A stretch of 36,145 nt of DNA. Origin: Desulfatiglandales bacterium (GTDB taxonomy: Bacteria; Desulfobacterota; DSM-4660; Desulfatiglandales; HGW-15). The translations under genes and the position numbers were made by a program. Location: contig JAWOJI010000087.1 of assembly GCA_046481735.1 (NCBI GenBank), positions 1-36,145 of the forward strand, written 5' to 3'. This document shows, piece by piece, positions 5,411 to 36,145 of the stretch (its first letter is position 1; the number at the start of each line of letters is the position of its first letter). Under the pieces are notes generated by a model. That model had not been told where the DNA came from. It did no database searches and saw only the letters and a list, made by a program, of their open reading frames with translations.

Positions 5411-6775
5411 ATGACGGATGCAATCATGATCATCGGCGCGGGCGTTGCGGGCATTAATTGCGCCCTGAACGCCGCAAAATACGGGGCAAAAGTCTATCTA
5501 GTGGATGATACGGCGAGCATCGGGGGCATGATGGCAAGGCTCGACAAAACCTTTCCCACCAATGACTGCTCGATCTGCATTGAGGCGCCCCAAATGTACG
5601 AGGTGGACAATCACCCCAATATCGAGATCCTCACCAGCACCGAGGTTCGGAAGGTCTCGAAGGCGAACGGCGGTTTTAAAATCCGTCTTGTCAGGAAGGC
5701 GAAGTTCATCGACGAGGAGAAGTGCACGGGATGCCGCGCATGCATGGACGCCTGCCCGGTCAGCGTGCCTGATGAGATGGACGGCAAGATCGGCGGAACC
5801 CGCAAGTTGATCTACATGCCCTTTCCCCAATCCGTCCCGAACAAGGCCGTCCTGGATCCCGACTGCCGGTACGGAAAAAAGAGGTCCGAAGGATCCTGCG
5901 TTGGGGGATGCGTGGTGGATTGCAGCCAATGCCGGGAATGCCCGATTGCTCTTTGCGTTGCCGCATGCCGGAAGGAGGGGAAAGACGCGGTTCGGTTGTG
6001 GCAGGCCAACAAGAACGTGGACCTGGAAGTCAAAAGCATCGTGGTGGCCACGGGGATCATTGATGCAAAGCCTCCCAAGGGACTGCACGGATATGACGTT
6101 TACGACAACGTAATCACCAACACACAATTTGAGCGGTTGATGAATGCGGGTGGCCCTACGGCCGGTCAAATCATCAGGCCCTCGGACAAAAAACACGCCC
6201 ACAAAATCGCCTGGATCCAATGCGCCGGGAGGGGCTTGGACCACGGCACGCCCTATTGCTCCAAGGTCTGCTGCATGATAGCCACCAAGCAGGTCATTAT
6301 TTCCAAAGAGCATGACCCGTCCGTGGAGACAACCATCTATTACAATGATCTCAAAGCCTACGGCAAAGGGTTCTGGGGTTTTTATCAAAAAGCAAAGGAG
6401 CATGGAGTCAAGTATGTGCGGGCCAGGCCTTACGATGTGTTCGAGCTTCCCGAAAGCAAGAACCTGTTGATTCGCTACGAGGACCTGGATACGGGAGAGC
6501 TGAGAAAAGATGAAGTGGAGCTTCTGGTCCTGTCCACGGGGCTCATCCCGAGCGATCGAAACGAAAGGCTTGCAAAGATTTTGAAGATACGGCTTGGGAA
6601 GCTCGGTTACTTTGAAGAGAAGGATCCTTTCCTGTCCCCCCTGGAGACGGACGTGCCGGGAATCTATCTTTGCGGCGGCGCCACAGGTCCGATCGACATC
6701 TCGGAGTCGGTGGTTCAGGCTACGGCGGCGAGCATGAAAGCGATTCTCCATGGAGCCGAAAAAGCGGCGGCTTAA
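5411..6775 (+). CDS. HdrA-like FAD/FeS oxidoreductase (heterodisulfide reductase subunit A family, lacking the N-terminal Cys-cluster domain)
   Basis: It has IMIIGAGVAGINCALNAAKYGAKVYLVDD (FAD fold), DKTFPTNDCSICI (HdrA signature), CTGCRACMDACP (ferredoxin insert) and YCSKVCCMIATKQ (HdrA CC motif). RBS is GAGGTGAG. Confidence 0.85.
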   Translation: MTDAIMIIGAGVAGINCALNAAKYGAKVYLVDDTASIGGMMARLDKTFPTNDCSICIEAPQMYEVDNHPNIEILTSTEVRKVSKANGGFKIRLVRKAKFIDEEKCTGCRACMDACPVSVPDEMDGKIGGTRKLIYMPFPQSVPNKAVLDPDCRYGKKRSEGSCVGGCVVDCSQCRECPIALCVAACRKEGKDAVRLWQANKNVDLEVKSIVVATGIIDAKPPKGLHGYDVYDNVITNTQFERLMNAGGPTAGQIIRPSDKKHAHKIAWIQCAGRGLDHGTPYCSKVCCMIATKQVIISKEHDPSVETTIYYNDLKAYGKGFWGFYQKAKEHGVKYVRARPYDVFELPESKNLLIRYEDLDTGELRKDEVELLVLSTGLIPSDRNERLAKILKIRLGKLGYFEEKDPFLSPLETDVPGIYLCGGATGPIDISESVVQATAASMKAILHGAEKAAA

Positions 6776-6917
6776 GGAGAAGGAAACAGAATGCAAAAAG
6801 CGGAATACAGGAGGCAGCAGGACAACCCTCTTCATGACCCCACCAATATTGAGGGTCCATTCCATAGATTCTGTATCCAGAACTCCTGAATTCTCAGTGT
6901 TGTGCGAGGAACATTCC

Positions 6918-8978
6918 ATGAGCGAGGATTTGAGAATCGGCGTTTTCGTTTGTGACTGTGGTTCCAACATTGCAGGCGTCGTCAATGTGCCCGAGGTGGT
7001 TGAATACTCGAAAACGCTTCCAAACGTGGCATATGCCGATGAGGGCAAGTGGTCCTGCTCTGTAGACGCGTTGGGCTCAATGCAGCAGGCCATCAAGGAT
7101 CATCAATTAAACCGCGTTGTCATCGCATCCTGCACGCCGAGGACTCACGAGCCACTTTTCAAGCAGACGGTGAAGGAAGCGGGCCTGAACCCCTACCTCC
7201 TGGAATTTGTCAGCATCCGGGAGCAGGTCTCCTGGGTTCACATGAACGAGCCTGATGCAGCCACCCGGAAGGCCAAGGATCTGGTCAAGATGGGAGTGGC
7301 CAAGGCCGCGCTTCTGGAAGAAGGAGAAGAGATCAGGCTCCCTGTGGGGAAAGAGTGCTTGATCATCGGCGGCGGTGCGGCAGGAATGAATGCCGCTCTC
7401 AGTGTGGCCGCCCAGGGATTCAGGGCTATCATCGTGGAGAAAGAGCCCCGGCTGGGAGGCCTACTGAACAAAATCGGCACAGTATCGCACGAGCACGGCG
7501 AGATGGCCGCCGAGGAGATCCTGAGAAGAGCCAGGGAGGTTGTAGCGGCCGATCCGAACGTCACGGTATACACGAGCGCTGTCATCGAGGATGTGAAGGG
7601 GTATATCGGCAATTACAAGGTCAAGATCAAGGCGAATGGAACAGCGGAAAGTCTTGATGTGTCCACCATCATCGTGGCGACCGGTATGAGGGAGGTCAAA
7701 CCCGAAGGGCTGTTCCTTTACGGAGAGGATTCCCGGGTGGTCACCCAGCTTGAGCTTGAAGGCAAGCTCAAAAGCTCACAGACAGGAAACCCGAAGCACG
7801 TCGTCATGATCAACTGCGTGGGGTCCAAGAACGAGACACGAGGGTGCTGCAACATCGGCTGTCCTGTTTCTGTGAAGAACGCCCTGGCCCTGAAGCAAAT
7901 CGATCCGGACACGAAGGTTTACGTCCTTTACAGGGACCTGAGCATGGTGAGGGAGGAGCACTTTCACCTGGATGCAGCCAAGGGGGCCGGGGTGAAGTTC
8001 ATTCGCTTCCCGGATGACCGATACCCGGAAGTGACTAGGGAAAAAGGGAACCTTCAGATCAAGGTGCACGATATCCTAAGCGGGAGGGAGTTCAAATTTC
8101 CTGCCGATCTTCTCGTCCTGACCGTGGGATTTGAAGGGGACGAGACGATCGAGGCACTCAGAGGACATCTGAAGGTGTCCACCAATGCAGAAGGTTTTTT
8201 CCAGGAGCGGCACATCAAGCTGGGGCCCCTTGATTTTCCTGCGGACGGGATCGCCCTCTGCGGTTGCGCAAAGAATCCCAAGAGCTACAAGGAAACCTGC
8301 GAAGAGGGGATCGGGGCGGCAATGAGGGTGTCCATCCCCATGAAAAACGAACACATTGAAGCCGAAGGGATCGTGGCGGACATCGACCTATCGAACTGCA
8401 ATTTTTGCGGCCTCTGTCATAAACGCTGCCCCTACGGCGCCATCCTGGTGAACGAGAACAAGGAACCTTCCGTGGTAAAAGCGCTCTGCAAGGGTTGCGG
8501 TCTTTGCGCAGCCGATTGTCCAAAGGAATGTATCACCATCGTTCACTACTCGGATGAGCAGCTTTTGGCCCAGGTGGAGGCCGCATTAGAGGAGAATGCG
8601 GAGAGAAAGATCCTTGGCTTTGTTTGCCACTGGTGCGCTCTGGGCGGAGTGGACATGGCCGGCGTGAGCCGGCTTCAGTACCCGACCAACGCCCGCTTGA
8701 TCAGGGTCATGTGCTCGGCCCGGGTGCCGATCAAGCTCATCGAGCGGGCTTACGAAAAGGGTGCGGCCGGCGTCCTGGTGGCGGGGTGCGAGTTCCCTAC
8801 CTGCCACTACATCTCGGGGAATTATGCCTGCGAGACAAGGGTCAAAAGGGCGAAAAAGATTCTGGCCAGGAAGGGCTACGATCCGGAGAAGCTTTGGAAT
8901 GTGTGGTGCTCGGCCGCAGACGGTCCCAAGTTTGCGAACACCATGAGGGAGATGGCCAAGCAATTGAATCTTGTATGA
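6918..8978 (+). CDS. HdrA-like flavoprotein fused to a C-terminal MvhD (methyl-viologen-reducing hydrogenase delta subunit) domain
   Basis: The track ORF starts at 6750. I place the start at ATG 6918 (MSEDLRIGVFVCDCGSNIAG...) after GAGGA (6906-6910). It has the HdrA N-terminal Cys motif VCDCGSNI and the FAD fold LIIGGGAAGMNAAL. The C-terminal ferredoxin motifs are CNFCGLCHKRCP and CKGCGLCAADCP. An MvhD-like tail follows: GFVCHWCALGGVDMAG...RVMCSARV...GVLVAGCEFPTCHY. Confidence 0.85.
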   Translation: MSEDLRIGVFVCDCGSNIAGVVNVPEVVEYSKTLPNVAYADEGKWSCSVDALGSMQQAIKDHQLNRVVIASCTPRTHEPLFKQTVKEAGLNPYLLEFVSIREQVSWVHMNEPDAATRKAKDLVKMGVAKAALLEEGEEIRLPVGKECLIIGGGAAGMNAALSVAAQGFRAIIVEKEPRLGGLLNKIGTVSHEHGEMAAEEILRRAREVVAADPNVTVYTSAVIEDVKGYIGNYKVKIKANGTAESLDVSTIIVATGMREVKPEGLFLYGEDSRVVTQLELEGKLKSSQTGNPKHVVMINCVGSKNETRGCCNIGCPVSVKNALALKQIDPDTKVYVLYRDLSMVREEHFHLDAAKGAGVKFIRFPDDRYPEVTREKGNLQIKVHDILSGREFKFPADLLVLTVGFEGDETIEALRGHLKVSTNAEGFFQERHIKLGPLDFPADGIALCGCAKNPKSYKETCEEGIGAAMRVSIPMKNEHIEAEGIVADIDLSNCNFCGLCHKRCPYGAILVNENKEPSVVKALCKGCGLCAADCPKECITIVHYSDEQLLAQVEAALEENAERKILGFVCHWCALGGVDMAGVSRLQYPTNARLIRVMCSARVPIKLIERAYEKGAAGVLVAGCEFPTCHYISGNYACETRVKRAKKILARKGYDPEKLWNVWCSAADGPKFANTMREMAKQLNLV

Positions 8979-9015
8979 TCACCCGGCCGCGACGGTTATC
9001 AAGGAGTTGAGTGGT

Positions 9016-10755
9016 ATGGATGCGAAGCAGGCATTGGCAGAGAAATTCAGTGATGTGACCATGTTCAGAACCTGTGAGCAGTGCGGCTGTTGCAGCTCCG
9101 CATGCCCCATCACCGGCGTCAATCAGTTCAACGTGCGAAGAATCGTGCGACACATTGAACTGGATCTTCCCGAGGAGGTGGCTCAGACGGGCCTTCCCTG
9201 GGCCTGCACAACCTGCGGGCGCTGTGAGACCGTCTGCCCGAACGGCATTGCGATCCTGGACATCATGAGACCGCTCAGGGCCATGGCGCCTGAAACGGTC
9301 GTCCCCGATGAGATCCCCCCCTGCACGGCAGCCTGCCCTGCAGGTATTGATGTCCCGGGATACTTGAGATGGATTGCCCGGGGTAAACCGGAAGAGGCTT
9401 ACAAGGTGATCCTGGAAAAGATCCCCTTCCCCGGAATTCTGGGCCGGGTTTGCATTCATCCCTGCGAAACCAAGTGCCGACGGGGAGAGGTCAACCAGCC
9501 CATCGCGATTTGTGCCCTGAAACGGTATGCGGCGGATAGAGGAGGAGACCTTTTTAAAGCGGCCGCGCAGATCAAGAGAGCTACAGGCAGGAAGGCTGCA
9601 GTCATCGGGTCCGGCCCGTCAGGCCTCAGCGCCGCATTCTACCTGAGAAAAAAGGGCCACGAGGTAACGGTCTTTGAAGCAAGAGCGAAGCCTGGAGGAA
9701 TGATGCGCTACGGCATTCCCTTTTACCGTCTGCCTGAGGATGTTGTCGACAAGGAGATCCGTCAGGTTCTCAGTTTGGGAATCCGGCTTGAAACAGGCAA
9801 GGAGCTGGGCAGGGATTTTACCCTGGAGGATCTGAAAAAGGAAGGCTACGAAGCCACGTACATTGCCACAGGCCTCCAAAAGAGCCGAAAAATCGAGATG
9901 GAGGGCTCCAATCTCGAAGGCGTCCTCTGGGGAGTGGACTTTCTGTCTGAAGTGAGCGAGGGAAAAGAGATCCGGGTCGAGGGCAGGGTGCTTGTCGTAG
10001 GCGGAGGCAATGTGGCGGTGGATGTGGCTCTCACCGCTTTGCGGACAGGGGCCAAGGAAGTGACTATGGCGTGTCTGGAAAACAGGGAGGAGGTGCCGGC
10101 CAGTTCCTGGGAGATCGCGCAGGCCCTGGAGGAAGGGGTAACCCTCCTGCCTTCCTGGGGGCCGCACCGCATCGTGGGGGTAAACGGAAAGGTGAAAGCC
10201 GTTGAGCTCGTCACGTGCACGAGCGTGTTTGATGAAAAGGGCGATTTTTGCCCTGCTTTCGGGGATGAGAAAAAGATCGTTGAAGCCGACCAGGTAATCC
10301 TGGCCATAGGACAAGCTGCAGACCTTTCTTTTCTTTCCGGGGACGGCGAGATCCGGCATGAGCGAGGTCTTATCGTTATCGATGCGGAGACCCACAAAAC
10401 CGGCATGGCCGGTGTTTTTGCGGGCGGCGATGTGGGCCGCGGCGCCGGGGCCGTTATCGACGCGGTTGCCGCCGGCCGAAAGGCCGCCTCTTCCATGGAC
10501 AGAGCGCTTGGCGGAAACGGAGTTCTCGACGAGAGCTTTTCAGAGAAACTGGATGCCGCCTCCTACACAGGCAAGAGAGACAGGGGCTTTGCCGATTTGA
10601 CGAGATCCACGGCCGAAGCATTGCCTCTGGAGGAAAGGCGCAACAGCTTTAACGAGGTGGAAGGATGCTTCAGTGACGAGCAGGCTGTGGGCGAGGCCAG
10701 CAGGTGTCTTCAATGTGATTTCGAAGTCAAACTTGCCAAGCTACTCCGTTCATGA
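9016..10755 (+). CDS. fusion of an HdrC-like 2x[4Fe-4S] domain with a GltD/NfnB-like NAD(P)H-dependent FAD oxidoreductase (glutamate synthase small-subunit family)
   Basis: I place the start at ATG 9016 after AAGGAG (9001-9006). The N-terminus has CEQCGCCSSACP and CTTCGRCETVCP. The GltD-type N-terminal FeS region follows: CTAACPAGIDVPGYL...CIHPCETKCRRG. Two dinucleotide folds are present, AAVIGSGPSGLSAAFYL...GGMMRYGIPFYRLP and VLVVGGGNVAVDVA, ending with GVFAGGD. Confidence 0.85.
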   Translation: MDAKQALAEKFSDVTMFRTCEQCGCCSSACPITGVNQFNVRRIVRHIELDLPEEVAQTGLPWACTTCGRCETVCPNGIAILDIMRPLRAMAPETVVPDEIPPCTAACPAGIDVPGYLRWIARGKPEEAYKVILEKIPFPGILGRVCIHPCETKCRRGEVNQPIAICALKRYAADRGGDLFKAAAQIKRATGRKAAVIGSGPSGLSAAFYLRKKGHEVTVFEARAKPGGMMRYGIPFYRLPEDVVDKEIRQVLSLGIRLETGKELGRDFTLEDLKKEGYEATYIATGLQKSRKIEMEGSNLEGVLWGVDFLSEVSEGKEIRVEGRVLVVGGGNVAVDVALTALRTGAKEVTMACLENREEVPASSWEIAQALEEGVTLLPSWGPHRIVGVNGKVKAVELVTCTSVFDEKGDFCPAFGDEKKIVEADQVILAIGQAADLSFLSGDGEIRHERGLIVIDAETHKTGMAGVFAGGDVGRGAGAVIDAVAAGRKAASSMDRALGGNGVLDESFSEKLDAASYTGKRDRGFADLTRSTAEALPLEERRNSFNEVEGCFSDEQAVGEASRCLQCDFEVKLAKLLRS

Positions 10756-30376: not shown

Positions 30377-30775
30377 TTATCTTCGGCTGTTGAGAAGGGT
30401 CAATTGGTCATTGAGGGTCCAGTAATCGTATATGTAGCCGATCAGGAAGAGACCTCCTGTCAGGAGGTAGAGGATGCCGGAAATCCATTTCCCCATGTAA
30501 AAGCGATGGATTCCAAAGATTCCAAGGAAGGTGAGCAGAATCCAGGCCACATTATAACTGTAAGGACCTGAACGAAATCGAAGATCAGCCTGGCGGTCCA
30601 TGGAGGGGATGAGGAACAGGTCCACGATCCATCCGACGAGGAACAGGCCGAAGGTGAAGAAGTAGATCGTGCCCGAAATGGGCTTCCCATAGTAAAACCG
30701 ATGGGATCCTGTAAAACCGAATATCCACAGGACATAGCCTATGGACTTGAGGTGGGTGTCATGGTGGATTTGCAT
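30377..30775 (-). CDS. TM2-domain membrane protein (two TM2 repeats)
   Basis: Two repeats are present: GSHRFYYGKPISGTIYFFTFGLFLVGWIVDLFLIP and GIHRFYMGKWISGILYLLTGGLFLIGYIYDYWTL. It overlaps the methyltransferase gene by 17 nt. Confidence 0.8.
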   Translation of the reverse strand: MQIHHDTHLKSIGYVLWIFGFTGSHRFYYGKPISGTIYFFTFGLFLVGWIVDLFLIPSMDRQADLRFRSGPYSYNVAWILLTFLGIFGIHRFYMGKWISGILYLLTGGLFLIGYIYDYWTLNDQLTLLNSRR

Positions 30776-31364
30776 AGTTCCTCTTTCCGCTCTTGAAGGT
30801 GATCAGATAATTGTAGGGTCCCACGTCGCTCATGCTGTGTGGTACAAAGCCATGGGGGGAGACCAGCCGCTCCACGTCTTGAGGAGTCAAACGAATCTTC
30901 AGGGATGGGCCGGGTGGGCCCTCCATCTTCTTGAACTCCACAACGCCAAGGATAGCGCCGGGTTTCAAGACTCTTGCCGTGTCCTCAATCGCCGCAAAGG
31001 CAACCCCTTCCCTCACGAAGTCATGGAGCACTGTGGCGATCAGGCAGACGTCCACCGTTGCGCTTTGGATCGGGAGAGGCCTCCCAACATCTCCGACTAC
31101 GGTTCTGATATTTTCCAGATTCTGAGCCTGCGCTTTTCTCTGCAGCTTGACAAGGGCCTCGACCCACATGTCCACTGCAAAGACCGTTCCTTTGGAACCC
31201 AGGATGTTTGCAACAGCAACGGCGTAATCCCCGGGCCCGCACCCCATATCCAGGAATGTCATCCCTTTGCGGAAGTTCAGTTCGCGGAAGACCCTTTCGT
31301 GATCAACCAGGTCATAACTGCTCTTTCCCGCTCCGTGGGGTTTCGAAGGATGGTGGTCGACCAT
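30759..31364 (-). CDS. class I SAM-dependent methyltransferase
   Basis: Motif I is FLDMGCGPGDYAVAV, followed by VFAVDMW and LKPGAILGVVEF. The ATG lies 3 nt after the rtcB stop (TAA CGA ATG). Confidence 0.8.
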   Translation of the reverse strand: MVDHHPSKPHGAGKSSYDLVDHERVFRELNFRKGMTFLDMGCGPGDYAVAVANILGSKGTVFAVDMWVEALVKLQRKAQAQNLENIRTVVGDVGRPLPIQSATVDVCLIATVLHDFVREGVAFAAIEDTARVLKPGAILGVVEFKKMEGPPGPSLKIRLTPQDVERLVSPHGFVPHSMSDVGPYNYLITFKSGKRNYANPP

Positions 31365-31367
31365 TCG

Positions 31368-32822
31368 TTATCCCTTGATGACACCGATCGGCTTGAGTTT
31401 AACCACTTTCCTCGCAATATCTGCACCGTGAACCACATGGACCACGTCCTCCACATCCTTGTAAGCCTCAGGGATCTCCTCCACCAGGGTAGCCCTGCTG
31501 GCTCCCCTGACCAGGATGCCGCGATCCTCCAGTTCACGGACAATGGAGCGGCCTTTGGCCGATTTCCTGGCCTGATGTCGGCTCATCAATCGACCTGCAC
31601 CGTGACAGGCTGATCCGAAGGTTTCATGGAAGCCATGCTGTGTTCCAACCAGGACATAAGAACATCGCCCCATATCGCCGGGGATGAGAACCGGCTGTCC
31701 CACGGCGCGGTAGGGCAAGGGGACTTCAGGATGCCCGGGAGGGAACGCGCGAGTCGCCCCTTTCCGATGCACGCAGAGGTTTCTTTTCCTCCCCTCCACC
31801 TCGTGGGTTTCCATCTTGGCCATGTTGTGGCAAACGTCGTAGATGAGCTCAAGCCGAAGATCGCGGGGGCTGAGCTGAAAAACCTGCTCGAAACTTTCCC
31901 TGACCCAGTGGGTGATCACCTGGCGGTTCACAAAAGCGAAATTGGCTGCGCAAGCCATGGCGGCCAAATACTTCTTGCCTTCCTGAGAGTCCACAGGCGC
32001 GCAGCAGAGCTGGGGATCGGGCAACTCAATGCCATATTTCTTGGAAGCCTGAAGCATGACTTTGATGTAATCGTCGCACACCTGGTGACCCAGGCCTCTG
32101 GAGCCGGTGTGCACCAGAACGGTCATCTGATTTTCATGAAGTCCAAACAGACCGGCAGCCTTTTCATCAAGCACCTCCTCAACGTATCCCACCTCCACGA
32201 AATGGTTCCCGGAACCGACAGTACCGAGCTGGGCGCGGCCGCGCTCCAAAGCACGCTCGCTCACACAGGCTGTGTCGGCTCCATGAATGCATCCCTGCGC
32301 TTCGATGTGCTCCATGTCTTCCGGAGAACCGAAACCGTTTTCGATGGTCCACTGCGCCCCTTTTCTCAGGACCCTTGAGAGTTCTTTCTGCCCCAGTTTC
32401 ATATCCTTCCTTTTCGATCCCACGCCGGAAGGGATGTTTTGAAAGAGGGCGGTCACAATGTCATGAATCCTTCCTTTGGCGTCTTTGGCGCTCAGACCTG
32501 AGCGCAGCAGGCGAACCCCTCAATTGATGTCATATCCGACCCCTCCTGGGGAAATGATCCCCTCTCCCGCGTCGAAGGCAGCAACCCCTCCGATGGGAAA
32601 GCCGTAACCCCAATGGATATCAGGCATGGCCATGGACTTTCCCACGATGCCGGGAAGCGTCGCAACGTTCATCACCTGAAGAAGGCTCTGGTCTTTCCTG
32701 ATGTCCTTCATCATCTTTTCGTCTGCAAACACGAGCCCTTCAGCGCGCATCTTTCCTTCCCTGGGTATGCGCCATCGCCAGTCATCGATTTTCTGGATTT
32801 TGAACTGCTGACCTTCTGTCAT
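31368..32822 (-). CDS. rtcB: RNA 3'-phosphate ligase RtcB, predicted selenoprotein (in-frame TGA at 32522-32520 read as Sec)
   Basis: Track ORFs 32520..32897 and 31368..32456 are in the same frame and are separated only by one TGA. The joined sequence reads ...[44 protein letters not shown].... The TGA sits where RtcB has the metal-ligand Cys of the DxxCG motif. Downstream motifs are intact: [23 protein letters not shown] place the start at ATG 32822 ([11 protein letters not shown]) after GGAGAGG. Confidence 0.75.
32488..32505 (-). promoter_or_regulatory. candidate bacterial SECIS hairpin downstream of the rtcB UGA
   Basis: The minus-strand RNA reads UGA-N14-GCGCUCA[GGUC]UGAGCGC. The stem is 7-8 bp and perfect. 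The apical loop starts with G and contains GU, and it lies about 21 nt after the UGA. Confidence 0.5.
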
Positions 32823-32927: not shown

Positions 32928-33344
32928 TTACAGATCGAGAATGACCTGGGCCTTCCAGTCACCTTTTTCCCGGCGAATTCGGAGTTGGTGATAGGTGGCG
33001 CTCTTGACGGTGGTCTCTATGGGATGACGACTCTCATCATAAGCCTCTCCTCGAACGGTCGCTACAAGCGCTCGATCATTTAAGGAAAGAAGGTCAAATT
33101 CACGAAACAGGAGTCCCTGGGTTTCAAAAAGATAGATGAATTCATTGAGCCAGTCGACGAAAAGCTCTTCCAGGTCATTGGCCTGAAGTCTGATGGTTCG
33201 GGTTTCCCTCAATTGAATGGTTTCAGGATCGGTGATGACCCGGAAGAGAGCCTGTGCGGCATGGCGGAAGAGGTCAGGCAAGGTTTTGCCGAAGACCTGG
33301 ATGCCCTGATCTCCTGCATGATCAAGAAACTCGAACCCACGCAC
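32928..33344 (-). CDS. archease (RtcB activator family)
   Basis: It uses a GTG start after GAGGAAAT. The sequence (M)RGFEFLDHAGDQGIQVFGKTLPDLFRHAAQALF ... VKSATYHQLRIRREKGDWKAQVILDL has the typical archease N- and C-terminal signatures. Confidence 0.85.
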   Translation of the reverse strand: MRGFEFLDHAGDQGIQVFGKTLPDLFRHAAQALFRVITDPETIQLRETRTIRLQANDLEELFVDWLNEFIYLFETQGLLFREFDLLSLNDRALVATVRGEAYDESRHPIETTVKSATYHQLRIRREKGDWKAQVILDL

Positions 33345-33370: not shown

Positions 33371-34318
33371 TTAACCCGGGCCATACAAGTCCCGAACCTT
33401 CCGCACCATGCCCTGGCGCTTGAGAAAGTGCCGGGGATCAGCTTCGGGGTCGGCCAGGATTTCTTCAAGGTACTTCTTATGTCTCTCGATCGCTTCTTGG
33501 TAAAGGTTTGCTGAAATGCTCCACCGGGACGCGAAGTGAGCTGTCATGAAACGTTGTACCAGGTCGGAAACAGGGGCGATTCTCTGCTTCATGTACTCCA
33601 TGAAGGCAGGGGTTTTCCTGATGAGATCCACTTCGCTTTCATATTCTCCCACGTTCCCCTCCTTGTACTCATGGTAAAGAAAGAGAAGCTTTTCGAGATA
33701 GACCCTGTCCGCCATTTGCCCCATTAAATCCGCTGCGTTGAGAAGCCTTCCGAAAAGCTCCACTGTGGGAGAAGGGTGCAGAGAATCCGGGAGGGCCCTC
33801 TTGATGTCCGTGTAAAGTATCATGGCGGCGCCGTCTTGGATCTCCTCCTTGGTGAACCCGATCTCGGGGCCGTGCCTCATGAGAAAGTCTCTGCCTCTCT
33901 TCACGTGGTAAAGGGTGAATTTGGCACCGGTGCCTTCGATGTCGTCTTTGTCCTGGATATATCCGGTGTCGTGAAAAAGAGCGGCAACGAGGGCAACCGA
34001 GATATCCCGTTCACGGAAATCCTCCTGGATGATACTTGCCCCATGAGCAAGTCTTGCCGTGGCGAGAAAAGCGTCCGTTGTGTGCCTGAGGTCGTGGTAG
34101 AGGGTCGTGCAAGACCTGTAAAGCGGGTGATTTCCGCGAAAGATCCTGAGGATCAAACGAAAGGCGGCCCGAACACGTTCAATGTCAAAATTGGGGGAAA
34201 TGAGCGCTAGAATGATGACGATTTCCTCAAAAACCGCCTCAGGGTCTTCGATTTCCACAAGGTCATGAAGCTTAATTTCCTTGAGAACGTCCCTTTTGAA
34301 CAACCGGCTCATGTCCAT
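33371..34318 (-). CDS. HD-domain metal-dependent phosphohydrolase family protein
   Basis: It has YHDLRHTTD and ALFHDTGYIQD (an H...HD...D pattern). At 315 aa it is the first gene of the co-directional block ending in TM2. Confidence 0.75.
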   Translation of the reverse strand: MDMSRLFKRDVLKEIKLHDLVEIEDPEAVFEEIVIILALISPNFDIERVRAAFRLILRIFRGNHPLYRSCTTLYHDLRHTTDAFLATARLAHGASIIQEDFRERDISVALVAALFHDTGYIQDKDDIEGTGAKFTLYHVKRGRDFLMRHGPEIGFTKEEIQDGAAMILYTDIKRALPDSLHPSPTVELFGRLLNAADLMGQMADRVYLEKLLFLYHEYKEGNVGEYESEVDLIRKTPAFMEYMKQRIAPVSDLVQRFMTAHFASRWSISANLYQEAIERHKKYLEEILADPEADPRHFLKRQGMVRKVRDLYGPG

Positions 34319-34514
34319 ACAGAGATTCTTCCAAAGAAAAGCTCTCTAACGGAGAAGAACAAAGCGTCCCCTTCTGATGAAAGGGGCAGAAGGAGAAAGA
34401 GAAACAAACTCAAAGAATTCTAACACAAACACAATGCCGAATCAATTGCAATATTCCGACTTCATAAACACAGATCCGTCTCGATTGCACCCATTTAAGA
34501 GCTTCTGGAGTAAT

Positions 34515-34685
34515 TCAGGGATTTCCCTTGATTTTCGAGTTGATCCCGGTATAAAGTTCTCTCGAATTTATGCCAAGCGTTTCGCACGCTTCAAAATGAC
34601 CACCCTGGTTTTCAACCAAAGCGATCTGCCCATCAAATGCGGGTGGATTTATCGAAAATTCCTCCAAGAATACCTTGGTTACCAT
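34515..34685 (-). CDS. small (56 aa) Fis-type helix-turn-helix protein or gene fragment
   Basis: It falls below the track length cutoff. The product is MVTKVFLEEFSINPPAFDGQIALVENQGGHFEACETLGINSRELYTGINSKIKGNP. The segment IALVENQGGHFEACETLGINSRELY resembles the C-terminal Fis-type HTH of sigma-54 activators (aL...gGN...AA..LGIsR.TLy). An in-frame stop lies 4 codons upstream of the ATG. Confidence 0.35.
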   Translation of the reverse strand: MVTKVFLEEFSINPPAFDGQIALVENQGGHFEACETLGINSRELYTGINSKIKGNP

Positions 34686-35253
34686 GGCCGGCACAGCCTA
34701 CAAAGATATCAAAGACTCCCTGATTCAGCTCTATGCGAAGGATGAACGCCCCTGGTTGGTGGGGTTCAGCGGGGGCAAAGACAGCACCATGCTCGCCTCT
34801 CTCATCTTTGACGCCGTACTCTTTGTTCCTCAGGCGGAGCGAAAAAAACCTATATCGGTTCTATGCACGCACACGCGCATAGAAATCCCTGCCATTGCCG
34901 AGATGGTCGAAGGCACGCTTTCCCGGATGCAAAGGTTTTCCCGGCAAAACGAGCTGAACATAGAGGTGAACTTGCTGAAACCGCCTCCCGAACAATCTTT
35001 CTGGGTGAACATAATCGGCCGGGGCGTCGCCCGCATCATCAACCAACAGCGGGGGATCATCATGAACGCCAATCTAACCGAGTTGAACCGTCTTCGAGAA
35101 CTGGAAGAGGAGGTTGCCCGGGAATTCGGCGTGCGTGCGGACATCTTGCGGCGCATGCTCGCAAAGGTCGAGGAATACAGCGAGAGCCACCGCGCCCATG
35201 GCCTGCCGGACGACCTCCTGAACGCTCTAAAAGATGATCTCTCCTGGCGCTAG
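34684..35253 (+). pseudogene. dndC: internally deleted dndC-like (PAPS-reductase-fold, DNA phosphorothioation) gene remnant
   Basis: The first ~115 aa read like a DndC N-terminus: DERPWLVGFSGGKDSTMLASLIFDAV...KKPISVLCTHTRIEIPAIAEMVEG...LLKPPPEQSFWVNIIGRG. After IIGRG the expected YPxP...RWCT core is absent. The ORF ends about 75 aa later, giving ~190 aa where I recall a DndC of several hundred aa. The usual DT of the PP-loop region reads HT. Confidence 0.55.
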
Positions 35254-35286
35254 GCTGAGGAAGAGAACACCACGATCCGTTAGTTG

Positions 35287-36145
35287 ATGGTAAAAAACTG
35301 CAACCATTGGTTAGGCAAAATTGCGACCCTGCGCATAGACCGGGCGCGAGGTGACCCTGCACCTCACAAACCACTCCTGCTTTTGGTCATTCTTGAAATG
35401 GTGGACAAGGGCGAAGTGACAGACCGTGAGATTGCACTCTCTGCCGATCTCGCCTTCAGGTTCAGCGTGTTTTGGTCAGTTGTAGCTCAGCGGCGTAGAC
35501 AGCCGCCCGAAGTGCGGTTACCCTTCCATCACCTGGGGTCTTCCGGCATGTGGATGCCACTGGCGGCTGACGGCAAACCGTCGCCGAATAGGATGCTGAC
35601 CACGACGATCAGGCTCGATGCAGGCTTCTTCGCATGTCTCACTGATCGCGACTTCCGCGATCAAGCGAGAAGAGTGTTGATTCAAACCGAACCCTATTTC
35701 CGGCCTGAGGAGCAAGTCGCGCTCTGCAGCATGCTGAATCTCACACCGAATCTTCCTCAGGTCCGAGAAAACCCGAGAGAGTACAGAACGAGGGTACAAA
35801 GCGGGCGTAATGCGCGCTTCCGCATCGAGGTAGTCGTTGTTGCGTACAGGCACACCTGTGCGCTCACCGGTTATCGGATGACCACATTGGACATGGAGAG
35901 CATCGTCGATGCAGTTCACATCCACGAATTCAAAGACAGCAGAAACAACGATCCCCGGAATGGTATAGCACTCAGCAAGAATGCACACTGGCAGTTTGAC
36001 CGCGGCCTGTGGTCGTTAGACGACAACTATAGGGTAATTCTCAACAGAGAGAGATTTACCGAGGAGGGTGTGCCTAGACAGCGGCTTGTCGATTTCGAAG
36101 GGAAAAGAGCTTTCTTGCCGAGTGATTCGAAGTATTGGCCAGAGC
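35287..36145 (+). CDS. HNH endonuclease (HNH_2 type) with an N-terminal ScoMcrA-like putative DNA sulfur-binding domain; 3' end cut by window edge
   Basis: It is not in the ORF track because there is no stop before the window end. I translated 286 open codons by hand: MVKNCNHWLGKIATLRIDRARGDPAPHKPLLLLVILEMVDKGEV...VRLPFHHLGSSGMWMP...NARFRIEVVVAYRHTCALTGYRM...IVDAVHIHEFKDSRNNDPRNGIALSKNAHWQFDRGLWSLDDNYRVIL.... The C-terminal half fits the HNH_2 pattern (CA.TG ... aaHI.p ... NG..L....H..FD.G). The antisense track ORF 35518..35988 is a shadow of this frame. Confidence 0.7.
   Translation, partial: MVKNCNHWLGKIATLRIDRARGDPAPHKPLLLLVILEMVDKGEVTDREIALSADLAFRFSVFWSVVAQRRRQPPEVRLPFHHLGSSGMWMPLAADGKPSPNRMLTTTIRLDAGFFACLTDRDFRDQARRVLIQTEPYFRPEEQVALCSMLNLTPNLPQVRENPREYRTRVQSGRNARFRIEVVVVAYRHTCALTGYRMTTLDMESIVDAVHIHEFKDSRNNDPRNGIALSKNAHWQFDRGLWSLDDNYRVILNRERFTEEGVPRQRLVDFEGKRAFLPSDSKYWPE

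Follow-up and report, generated by a model that had tools for sequence, protein, structure and literature searches.

We describe here a gene for the RNA ligase RtcB that very probably encodes a selenoprotein, located in a 36,145-nt stretch of DNA (hereafter, the window) from a Desulfatiglandales bacterium (GCA_046481735.1, contig JAWOJI010000087.1). The gene, on the minus strand, is interrupted once by an in-frame UGA, at codon 101, in the position of the cysteine that bridges the two metal ions of the active site, and shortly after this codon lies a hairpin that fits the consensus of the bacterial selenocysteine insertion sequence (bSECIS). RtcB is the universal 3'-phosphate/5'-OH RNA ligase, which acts in tRNA splicing, RNA repair and the unfolded-protein response. 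An earlier sequence-only reading of the window had proposed that the UGA stands for selenocysteine (Sec). This proposal is supported by the alignment of codon 101 with Cys98 of the Pyrococcus horikoshii enzyme (PhoRtcB), by the fit of the hairpin to the bSECIS consensus, by pairs of closely related Cys- and Sec-type genes and by covariation within the hairpin, and we are highly confident that the hairpin directs the decoding of UGA101 as Sec. The elements concerned are the following.

31368–32822, minus strand: RtcB gene, 484 sense codons and a TAA stop, with Sec predicted at codon 101 (translation, PF01139, structure matches)
32520–32522, minus strand: in-frame UGA, codon 101, probably read as Sec, in place of the metal-bridging Cys (Cys98 of PhoRtcB, Cys78 of the Escherichia coli enzyme, EcoRtcB) (frame and alignment)
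32506–32519, minus strand: 14-nt spacer between UGA and hairpin, encoding GVRLL (protein sequence kept in all Sec- and Cys-type genes)
32488–32505, minus strand: candidate bSECIS apical hairpin, arms GCGCUCA (32505–32499) and UGAGCGC (32494–32488), loop GGUC (32498–32495) (fold, consensus, covariation)

The RtcB gene and its in-frame UGA

The gene occupies one minus-strand frame from the ATG at 32822–32820 to the TAA at 31370–31368, and its sole interruption is the TGA at 32522–32520. The two RtcB open reading frames (ORFs) noted earlier thus share a single frame broken by the TGA only, with a product of 484 amino acids, as had been claimed. A ribosome-binding-like GGAGAGG lies 8–14 nt 5' of the ATG. 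With Cys put in for the TGA, residues 49–484 of the product match the whole of the PF01139 profile (positions 1–426 of 426; E = 5e-180), and end-to-end structure matches were obtained with Thermus thermophilus TTHA1785 (PDB 2epg, E = 1.3e-186) and with PhoRtcB (1uc2/4dwq, E = 2e-171).

The TGA is not a sequencing error, since it recurs on eight Joint Genome Institute (JGI) contigs (seven samples; 98.8% identity to the window within the RtcB gene), and on all eight the gene callers split RtcB in the same way, into pieces of 100 and 362 amino acids. Between the window and these relatives 15 codons differ synonymously and three nonsynonymously, with no difference in codons 101–125. Of the 28 long ORFs in the window, 10 end in TGA, among them the methyltransferase gene behind RtcB; UGA thus serves this organism as a regular stop, and the site at codon 101 needs a local recoding signal.

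Position of the UGA in the active site

In a full-length structure alignment, codon 101 falls on Cys98 of PhoRtcB, which bears out the earlier assignment of the UGA to the metal-bridging cysteine. The other functional residues correspond as follows.

Asp98 of the window product: Asp95 of PhoRtcB, metal ligand
His207: His203, metal ligand
His238: His234, metal ligand
His332: His329, metal ligand
His407: His404, guanylylated histidine
Glu210: Glu206, guanine contact
Lys483: Lys480, guanine contact

Four of the five metal ligands are thus identical to those of PhoRtcB, and the fifth, the Cys position, is the UGA codon. In PhoRtcB, the first metal (M1) is held by His234, His329 and Cys98 and the second (M2) by Cys98, Asp95 and His203; loss of Cys98 abolishes every ligation step, and its sulfonic-acid form was found in one structure (Jacewicz et al. 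2022, PMC9745838). Because Cys98 bridges M1 and M2 and is prone to oxidation, the ligand replaced at the UGA is the most fragile of the active site as well as the most critical, and the rest of the site is intact. The bridging cysteine is readily oxidised to sulfonic acid, upon which the metals are lost and the enzyme is dead (PMC9745838, PMC12263435, PMC13247085). The RtcB literature calls it the enzyme's "Achilles heel", oxidised by air, reactive oxygen species and copper, and in animals PYROXD1 protects the Cys of RTCB from oxidation. PhoRtcB also accepts Co and Ni, and Zn and Cu poison it (PMC9745838).

The NCBIfam model NF038162 (intein-containing RtcB) matches the product in two stretches that break at residue 100, and the intein splice junction of P. 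horikoshii RtcB is at the same Cys (PMC4150793). The recoded codon therefore coincides with the splice-junction cysteine, a hotspot of two unusual events.

Conservation of the UGA among bacterial lineages

GTDB species representatives (one genome per species) were scanned with a degenerate 23-nt pattern back-translated from GYDIN-TGA-GV. Among the matches listed, 119 of 120 were RtcB genes with TGA at exactly this codon, which places the feature in at least 119 other species and at least six phyla. The matches listed include Thermodesulfobacteriota (Syntrophia, Desulfobacterales, Desulfarculaceae and Syntrophorhabdaceae), Nitrospirota/Thermodesulfovibrionia (among them Candidatus Magnetobacterium casense) and Acidobacteriota (Vicinamibacterales and others), and further Binatia, Gemmatimonadales (Gemmatimonadota), Eisenbacteria, Planctomycetota and Polyangiaceae. 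Complete or near-complete assemblies with the gene include OZ245365.1, OZ252293.1, CP070669.1 and NZ_JMFO01. The sole match of the 120 listed that is not RtcB (L035) has stops on both sides and no similarity to RtcB, and was set aside as a chance match. By a rough estimate, about 13 chance matches would be expected over all 596 Gb, and one among the 120 matches listed is unremarkable.

Directly after the TGA, and in frame with it, all 119 Sec-type genes among the matches listed encode GVRL[LMVI], which argues that translation continues through the TGA. In 78 of the 81 genes that are complete on both sides, 378–383 codons stay open after the TGA; of the remaining three, two have a frameshift and one a run of Ns. 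Homologs with the break at varying positions, which the earlier reading had named as grounds for abandoning Sec, did not appear: the TGA always stands at the same codon.

The hairpin downstream of the UGA

The hairpin begins exactly 14 nt after the TGA, has seven perfect base pairs and a 4-nt loop, folds alone with -10.7 kcal/mol and encodes the peptide (L)RSGLS(A). Its distance from the UGA and its GGUC loop are as first described; of the 7–8 bp given for the stem, seven stand and the eighth does not, since U17 and C36 do not pair. A bSECIS consensus was taken from the 2026 review of Zhang et al. (PMC13188914, Fig. 2A), and the check proposed earlier, a bSECIS search on this region, gave a hairpin that lies within every published limit, including that on the minimum free energy (MFE).

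Apical loop: 3–9 nt required; 4 nt (GGUC) in the window
Upper stem: 4–16 bp required; 7 bp in the window
G in the first two loop positions: required; GG in the window
Spacing from UGA: 16–37 nt required; 21 nt in the window
MFE: -7.5 kcal/mol or lower required; -10.7 kcal/mol in the window

For the 56-nt region as a whole, the energy of folding is ordinary (z = 0.02) and is therefore by itself no evidence. The signal of the SECIS is found in specific pairs, codon choice and covariation, and not in the energy of the region. When the gene was recoded 5000 times, with the amino acids kept and the codons redrawn from the usage of the window's own genes, any hairpin fitting the bSECIS consensus arose in 164 recodings and one as stable as the real hairpin in 26 (0.5%). 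No consensus-fitting hairpin was found elsewhere in the RtcB gene, that of codon 101 being the only one. The 50 Sec-type genes with RSGLS at this place show a skewed use of codons: Arg is CGC in 50/50, the first Ser is UCA in 41/50 (82%, against 10% elsewhere in the same genes), Gly is GGU in 37/50 (against 17%) and the second Ser is AGY in 50/50 (against 31%). With bulges allowed, 97 of 119 Sec-type genes fit the bSECIS model, as compared with 26% of recoded controls and 42% of amino-acid-matched Cys-type genes; canonical SECIS elements are present in 87.4% of the entries of BSepDB.

Base pairing was also followed within classes of hairpins, among lineages in which this stretch codes for different peptides. 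In the class of the window (19 sequences), 90.2% of cells are paired, against 15–51% in slid controls, and pair 18–35 occurs as GC, GU, CG and AU. A second one, class B (GAAGACC/GGUCUUC, GCGCUCC/GGAGCGC and relatives, 23 sequences), has 90.7% of cells paired, against 33–47% when slid; four of its seven pairs changed on both sides (AU/CG, GC/AU, GC/CG/AU and AU/UA), and none of 500 shuffles reached its covariation score. In the Nitrospirota class, with a longer hairpin further downstream, the apical five pairs are paired in 92.9% against 41–57% in slid controls, and compensation is modest. Conservation of the RNA hairpin exceeds the demands of the protein sequence.

The architecture in Nitrospirota differs from the others (loci L010, L018, L026, L027, L048, L051, L072, L089, L090, L100, L109 and L115). 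The hairpin is bulged, comprises about 15 bp in two registers and carries a 9-nt loop, some 30 nt past the UGA and often without the consensus G; in addition, the UGA itself is paired within a second small hairpin (UGAGGNGUNNGNCUCCUCA). This arrangement is outside the common bSECIS model. For the Nitrospirota set, RNAalifold chose a different and uninformative consensus, because two stem registers coexist.

Exchange between Sec- and Cys-type enzymes

The closest full-length homologs in a collection of 5.8 billion proteins have Cys at the position of codon 101 in 119 of 119 cases, the best of them being 73% identical to the window product. The nearest TGA-type gene among the matches listed (L106) is 83% identical to that of the window and is not among the full-length protein matches; Sec-type genes are therefore evidently stored as fragments.

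An average-linkage (UPGMA) tree of p-distances for 78 Sec-type and 201 Cys-type genes requires no fewer than 25 changes between the Sec and Cys states. Sec-type genes are down to 52% identical to one another, and some Sec/Cys pairs reach 96%. The members of such close pairs differ by TGA against TGC or TGT, and the Cys gene keeps the hairpin, in which the loop is often altered or a pair mismatched. The alignment of homologs suggested in the sequence-only reading has thus brought out abundant Cys/Sec pairs and a hairpin that is kept with covariation. This is the usual pattern of a selenoprotein family with frequent exchange between Sec and Cys, and we read the hairpin-bearing Cys genes as recent Sec-to-Cys or Cys-to-Sec neighbours. 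The MFE does not separate Sec from Cys genes (p = 0.17), because near Cys genes still carry the hairpin.

Examples are the Cys-type genes L154, L174 and L238, which are up to 96% identical to the Sec-type genes L092, L029 and L023, respectively. In these, and in 18 Cys-type genes that encode RSGLS, the hairpin and the skewed codons are kept, and often the loop has changed from GGUU to GGGU or the stem has a mismatch. Judged from their sequences, such hairpins look like 'fossil' or incipient SECIS elements.

Other readings of the UGA

Several observations weigh against a Sec-containing RtcB. Neither the window, the 36 kb of this genome covered here, nor the fetched loci (about 1.8 Mb in all) contained selA, selB, selD or tRNA(Sec), and no second selenoprotein gene was seen in the 36-kb window. 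Rfam gave no match for the hairpin region at a permissive threshold or for the whole window, and a short SECIS within a coding region is not expected to match. In Nitrospirota, many loops are without the consensus G, and the hairpin is a different and longer one. A SECIS-like hairpin is also present in some Cys-type genes, so the hairpin alone does not separate Sec from Cys genes. Finally, when Sec98 was engineered into P. horikoshii RtcB and the protein was produced in E. coli, it underwent spontaneous self-cleavage (Haruna et al. 2014, PMC4150793). Sec is therefore not trivially tolerated in every RtcB, and natural Sec-RtcBs must avoid this cleavage.

As to the machinery, the window yielded no tRNA gene of any kind with ARAGORN, and none for tRNA(Sec) turned up in 120 loci. 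A tblastn search of the 1.8 Mb with E. coli SelA, SelB and SelD returned one weak match (28%, SelB residues 2–207), in a Cys-type locus, which was taken as another translation GTPase. For this organism, we infer the Sec trait from comparison with related genes and from the lineages in question; in BSepDB, Desulfobacterota head the list of selenoprotein-rich organisms.

The alternative that survives best is that the UGA is recoded through the same hairpin and that Cys or another residue is inserted, by a Cys-charged SelB-type tRNA, by Cys on tRNA(Sec) at low selenium, or by near-cognate read-through. Unusual SelB-type and suppressor tRNAs have been reported in Acidobacteria and other bacteria (PMC5389517), and Sec and Cys are evidently interchangeable at codon 101. 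However, there is no positive evidence for the insertion of another residue here, the apical loop equals that of the classic SelB/Sec element of fdhF, and a UGA with a SECIS would be a costlier way to obtain Cys than TGC, which close relatives use freely. We consider insertion of a residue other than Sec improbable.

A split enzyme, in which translation would stop at the UGA and restart downstream, and pieces of 100 and about 362 amino acids would assemble without the bridging residue, is very unlikely. An in-frame GTG at 32456 is available and was used as a start by JGI, but the 21 codons between the TGA and this GTG are kept as protein, in frame, in all relatives and would go untranslated. 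Moreover, the next start codon lies at no fixed place, since the sequence there varies, and the bridging ligand is indispensable (PMC9745838).

A pseudogene, killed by a TGC/TGT-to-TGA nonsense mutation and followed by the hairpin only by coincidence, would need no more than a single base change and could accommodate the 100-aa and 362-aa pieces of the gene callers and the three of 81 complete relatives with disrupted downstream frames, but it is excluded for all practical purposes by the recurrence of the TGA at the same codon in at least 119 species of several phyla, with an intact frame and conserved protein after it, together with the 15 synonymous against three nonsynonymous differences between close strains, and it also sits badly with the retention of every catalytic residue downstream of the TGA and with the covarying structured element that follows it.

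Proposed decoding and function

Decoding of UGA101 as Sec would proceed by binding of SelB with Sec-tRNA(Sec) to the hairpin, from which SelB would bring Sec into the A site, competing there with release factor 2. The predicted product is a 484-aa functional RtcB 3'-phosphate/5'-OH RNA ligase, in which a selenolate in place of the thiolate would bridge M1 and M2 beside the GTP phosphates, while the other metal ligands (Asp98, His207, His238 and His332), His407 as the site of guanylylation, and Glu210 and Lys483, which contact guanine, are unchanged. Sec-RtcB presumably works with the archease encoded just upstream.

The advantage of Sec would most likely be resistance of the Cys position to irreversible oxidative inactivation, because selenium, once oxidised, is easily returned to the reduced state, unlike the sulfonic acid of cysteine. 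Sec may also, or instead, alter the affinity or preference for metals, as a selenolate is a softer ligand than a thiolate.

Relation to known enzymes and SECIS elements

The predicted enzyme has the same fold and length as the Cys-type RtcB proteins (P. horikoshii PH1602, T. thermophilus TTHA1785, E. coli RtcB and human RTCB), and shares with them the remaining M1 and M2 ligands, the histidine nucleophile that forms His-GMP, the guanine contacts and the partnership with archease. It differs in the bridging ligand, a Cys codon in those genes and UGA (Sec) in the window, and in the predicted SECIS hairpin that its mRNA carries inside the coding region.

The hairpin was compared with the SECIS of E. 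coli fdhF (strain MG1655), which reads UGA CAC GGC CCA UCG GUU GCA GGU CUG CAC C. The octamer CAGGUCUG is common to both and covers the loop and two closing pairs on each side; its GGU-CUG forms two in-frame codons, for Gly and Leu, in either gene. The loop in the window is exactly one codon (3 nt) further from the UGA. SelB contacts the G and U of the apical loop, and SECIS elements of the fdhF type have a bulged U in the upper stem; the stem in the window has no bulged U, whereas 48 related genes have a bulged C on the 3' side.

Substitution of Sec for a metal-ligating Cys, coexistence with Cys homologs and a SECIS after the UGA are also found in formate dehydrogenase H (Sec-Mo) and the [NiFeSe] hydrogenases (Sec-Ni). 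Those are redox enzymes of Mo/W or Ni, whereas RtcB carries out non-redox nucleotidyl transfer and ligation at a binuclear Mn site, which Sec would bridge. For the [NiFeSe] hydrogenases, a 2026 review credits Sec with protecting the metal site from irreversible over-oxidation.

In the engineered Sec98 variant of PhoRtcB, the same residue was changed to Sec, but artificially, by means of UAG and EF-Tu and without a SECIS, whereas the gene in the window is natural, apparently SECIS-dependent, and kept by selection in many lineages. PYROXD1 addresses the same weakness in another way: there, a separate flavoprotein shields a Cys enzyme, whereas Sec-RtcB would exchange the vulnerable atom itself, with protection as the presumed result.

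A family apparently not previously catalogued

RtcB and the recoding of Cys to Sec are both well known, and it is their combination that appears to be undescribed. In open full texts no natural selenoprotein RtcB was found, and the engineered enzyme was the only case (GenBank feature tables and subscription papers lay outside the scope of this search). A 2026 inventory of 119 prokaryotic selenoprotein families, including those known from GenBank annotation only, contains no RtcB and no RNA ligase; the deep-Sep and BSepDB papers mention no ligase; and the supplement of Peng 2016 has no RtcB. NCBIfam release 20 holds selenoprotein-specific models for other families and none for RtcB, and a 2026 review of RTCB enzymology (198,000 characters) has no word starting with "selen". 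We think it reasonably likely that Sec-RtcB is a truly undescribed family. Nor does a bridging Sec in a binuclear, non-redox Mn enzyme appear to have been described.

On balance we lean towards the wider view that Sec-RtcB would be the first selenoenzyme of RNA repair and ligation and the first case of a selenolate-bridged binuclear Mn site, belonging to a widespread, uncatalogued family with at least 25 gains or losses and offering a natural remedy for an oxidation-prone Cys. For selenium biology, it would be a family outside the usual pattern of thiol oxidoreductases, with Sec in a bridging role in a non-redox enzyme. A natural Sec at the vulnerable atom of RtcB offers a ready-made test of the idea of Cys oxidation: since Sec and Cys enzymes are up to 96% identical, their sensitivity to oxidants and copper, metal preference and turnover are directly comparable.

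Gene callers cut the gene in two on every contig with visible gene calls, and on the rest likewise as far as the protein database shows. Because of this fragmentation, annotations and selenoproteome counts for Thermodesulfobacteriota, Nitrospirota and Acidobacteriota are probably incomplete. The three hairpin solutions at one site provide material for broadening bacterial SECIS models.

Genomic context

On the minus strand, the RtcB gene is preceded by genes for an HD-domain protein and an archease and followed by that for a methyltransferase.

33371–34318, minus strand: HD-domain (Npun_R2479-like) gene, head of the same-strand cluster (profile search)
32928–33344, minus strand: archease gene, directly upstream of RtcB (PF01951, E = 1e-42)
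30759–31364, minus strand: gene for a methyltransferase dependent on S-adenosylmethionine (SAM), starting 3 nt after the RtcB stop, with a TGA stop at 30761–30759 (profile and ORF)

Archease, which we take to be the activator of RtcB guanylylation, has homologs in 101 Sec-type loci (the window counted) and 79 Cys-type loci. The HD gene stands beside archease and RtcB only in near-identical contigs and a few further loci, and for this reason is probably not part of the ligase system; the adjacency of the methyltransferase gene is conserved only among the closest relatives. A TM2-domain gene (30775–30377) overlaps the end of the methyltransferase gene by 17 nt. This overlap and the 3-nt gap between RtcB and the methyltransferase suggest that the HD-domain through TM2 genes form one transcription unit.

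Other pairs of ORFs joined by a TGA in the window were only antisense or adjacent-gene coincidences, and the HdrA/MvhD-like and rhodanese genes have Cys. HdrA and MvhD are often selenoproteins. On the plus strand, 5411–10755 holds three consecutive large ORFs whose products, judged by eye, resemble a flavoprotein of the HdrA type, a fusion of the HdrA/MvhD type (C-terminal FVCHWCALGG...) and an NAD(P)H oxidoreductase similar to GltD, with Cys clusters as in ferredoxins; in these ORFs all candidate Sec positions are Cys, and there is no in-frame TGA. Thioredoxin-like proteins of PF13192 include known selenoprotein subfamilies. Just past the left edge of the window, contig L248 (positions 1–1369, overlapping positions 1–779 of the window) encodes a 79-aa Thioredoxin_3 protein (PF13192) with GPGCRRCE, in the Cys form, and its gene adjoins that for an ArsR-type regulator (273–779 in the window).

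Beyond the HD gene (about 34400–36145), the window and the otherwise 99%-identical JGI contigs L241–L246 diverge: the contigs carry a gene for a 403-aa PALP-family protein there, and the window carries short ORFs. One of these (34675–35253) has an SGGKDS motif that recalls PAPS-reductase/DndC-like ATP pyrophosphatases. The divergence may mark a strain-specific insertion or a rearrangement breakpoint.

In five of the other Sec-RtcB loci, from Syntrophorhabdus-like organisms or 'Deltaproteobacteria' (L004, L037, L046, L065 and L082), a gene for tRNA-Leu(CAA) is situated no more than a few kb from that for RtcB, which probably reflects local synteny of that clade.

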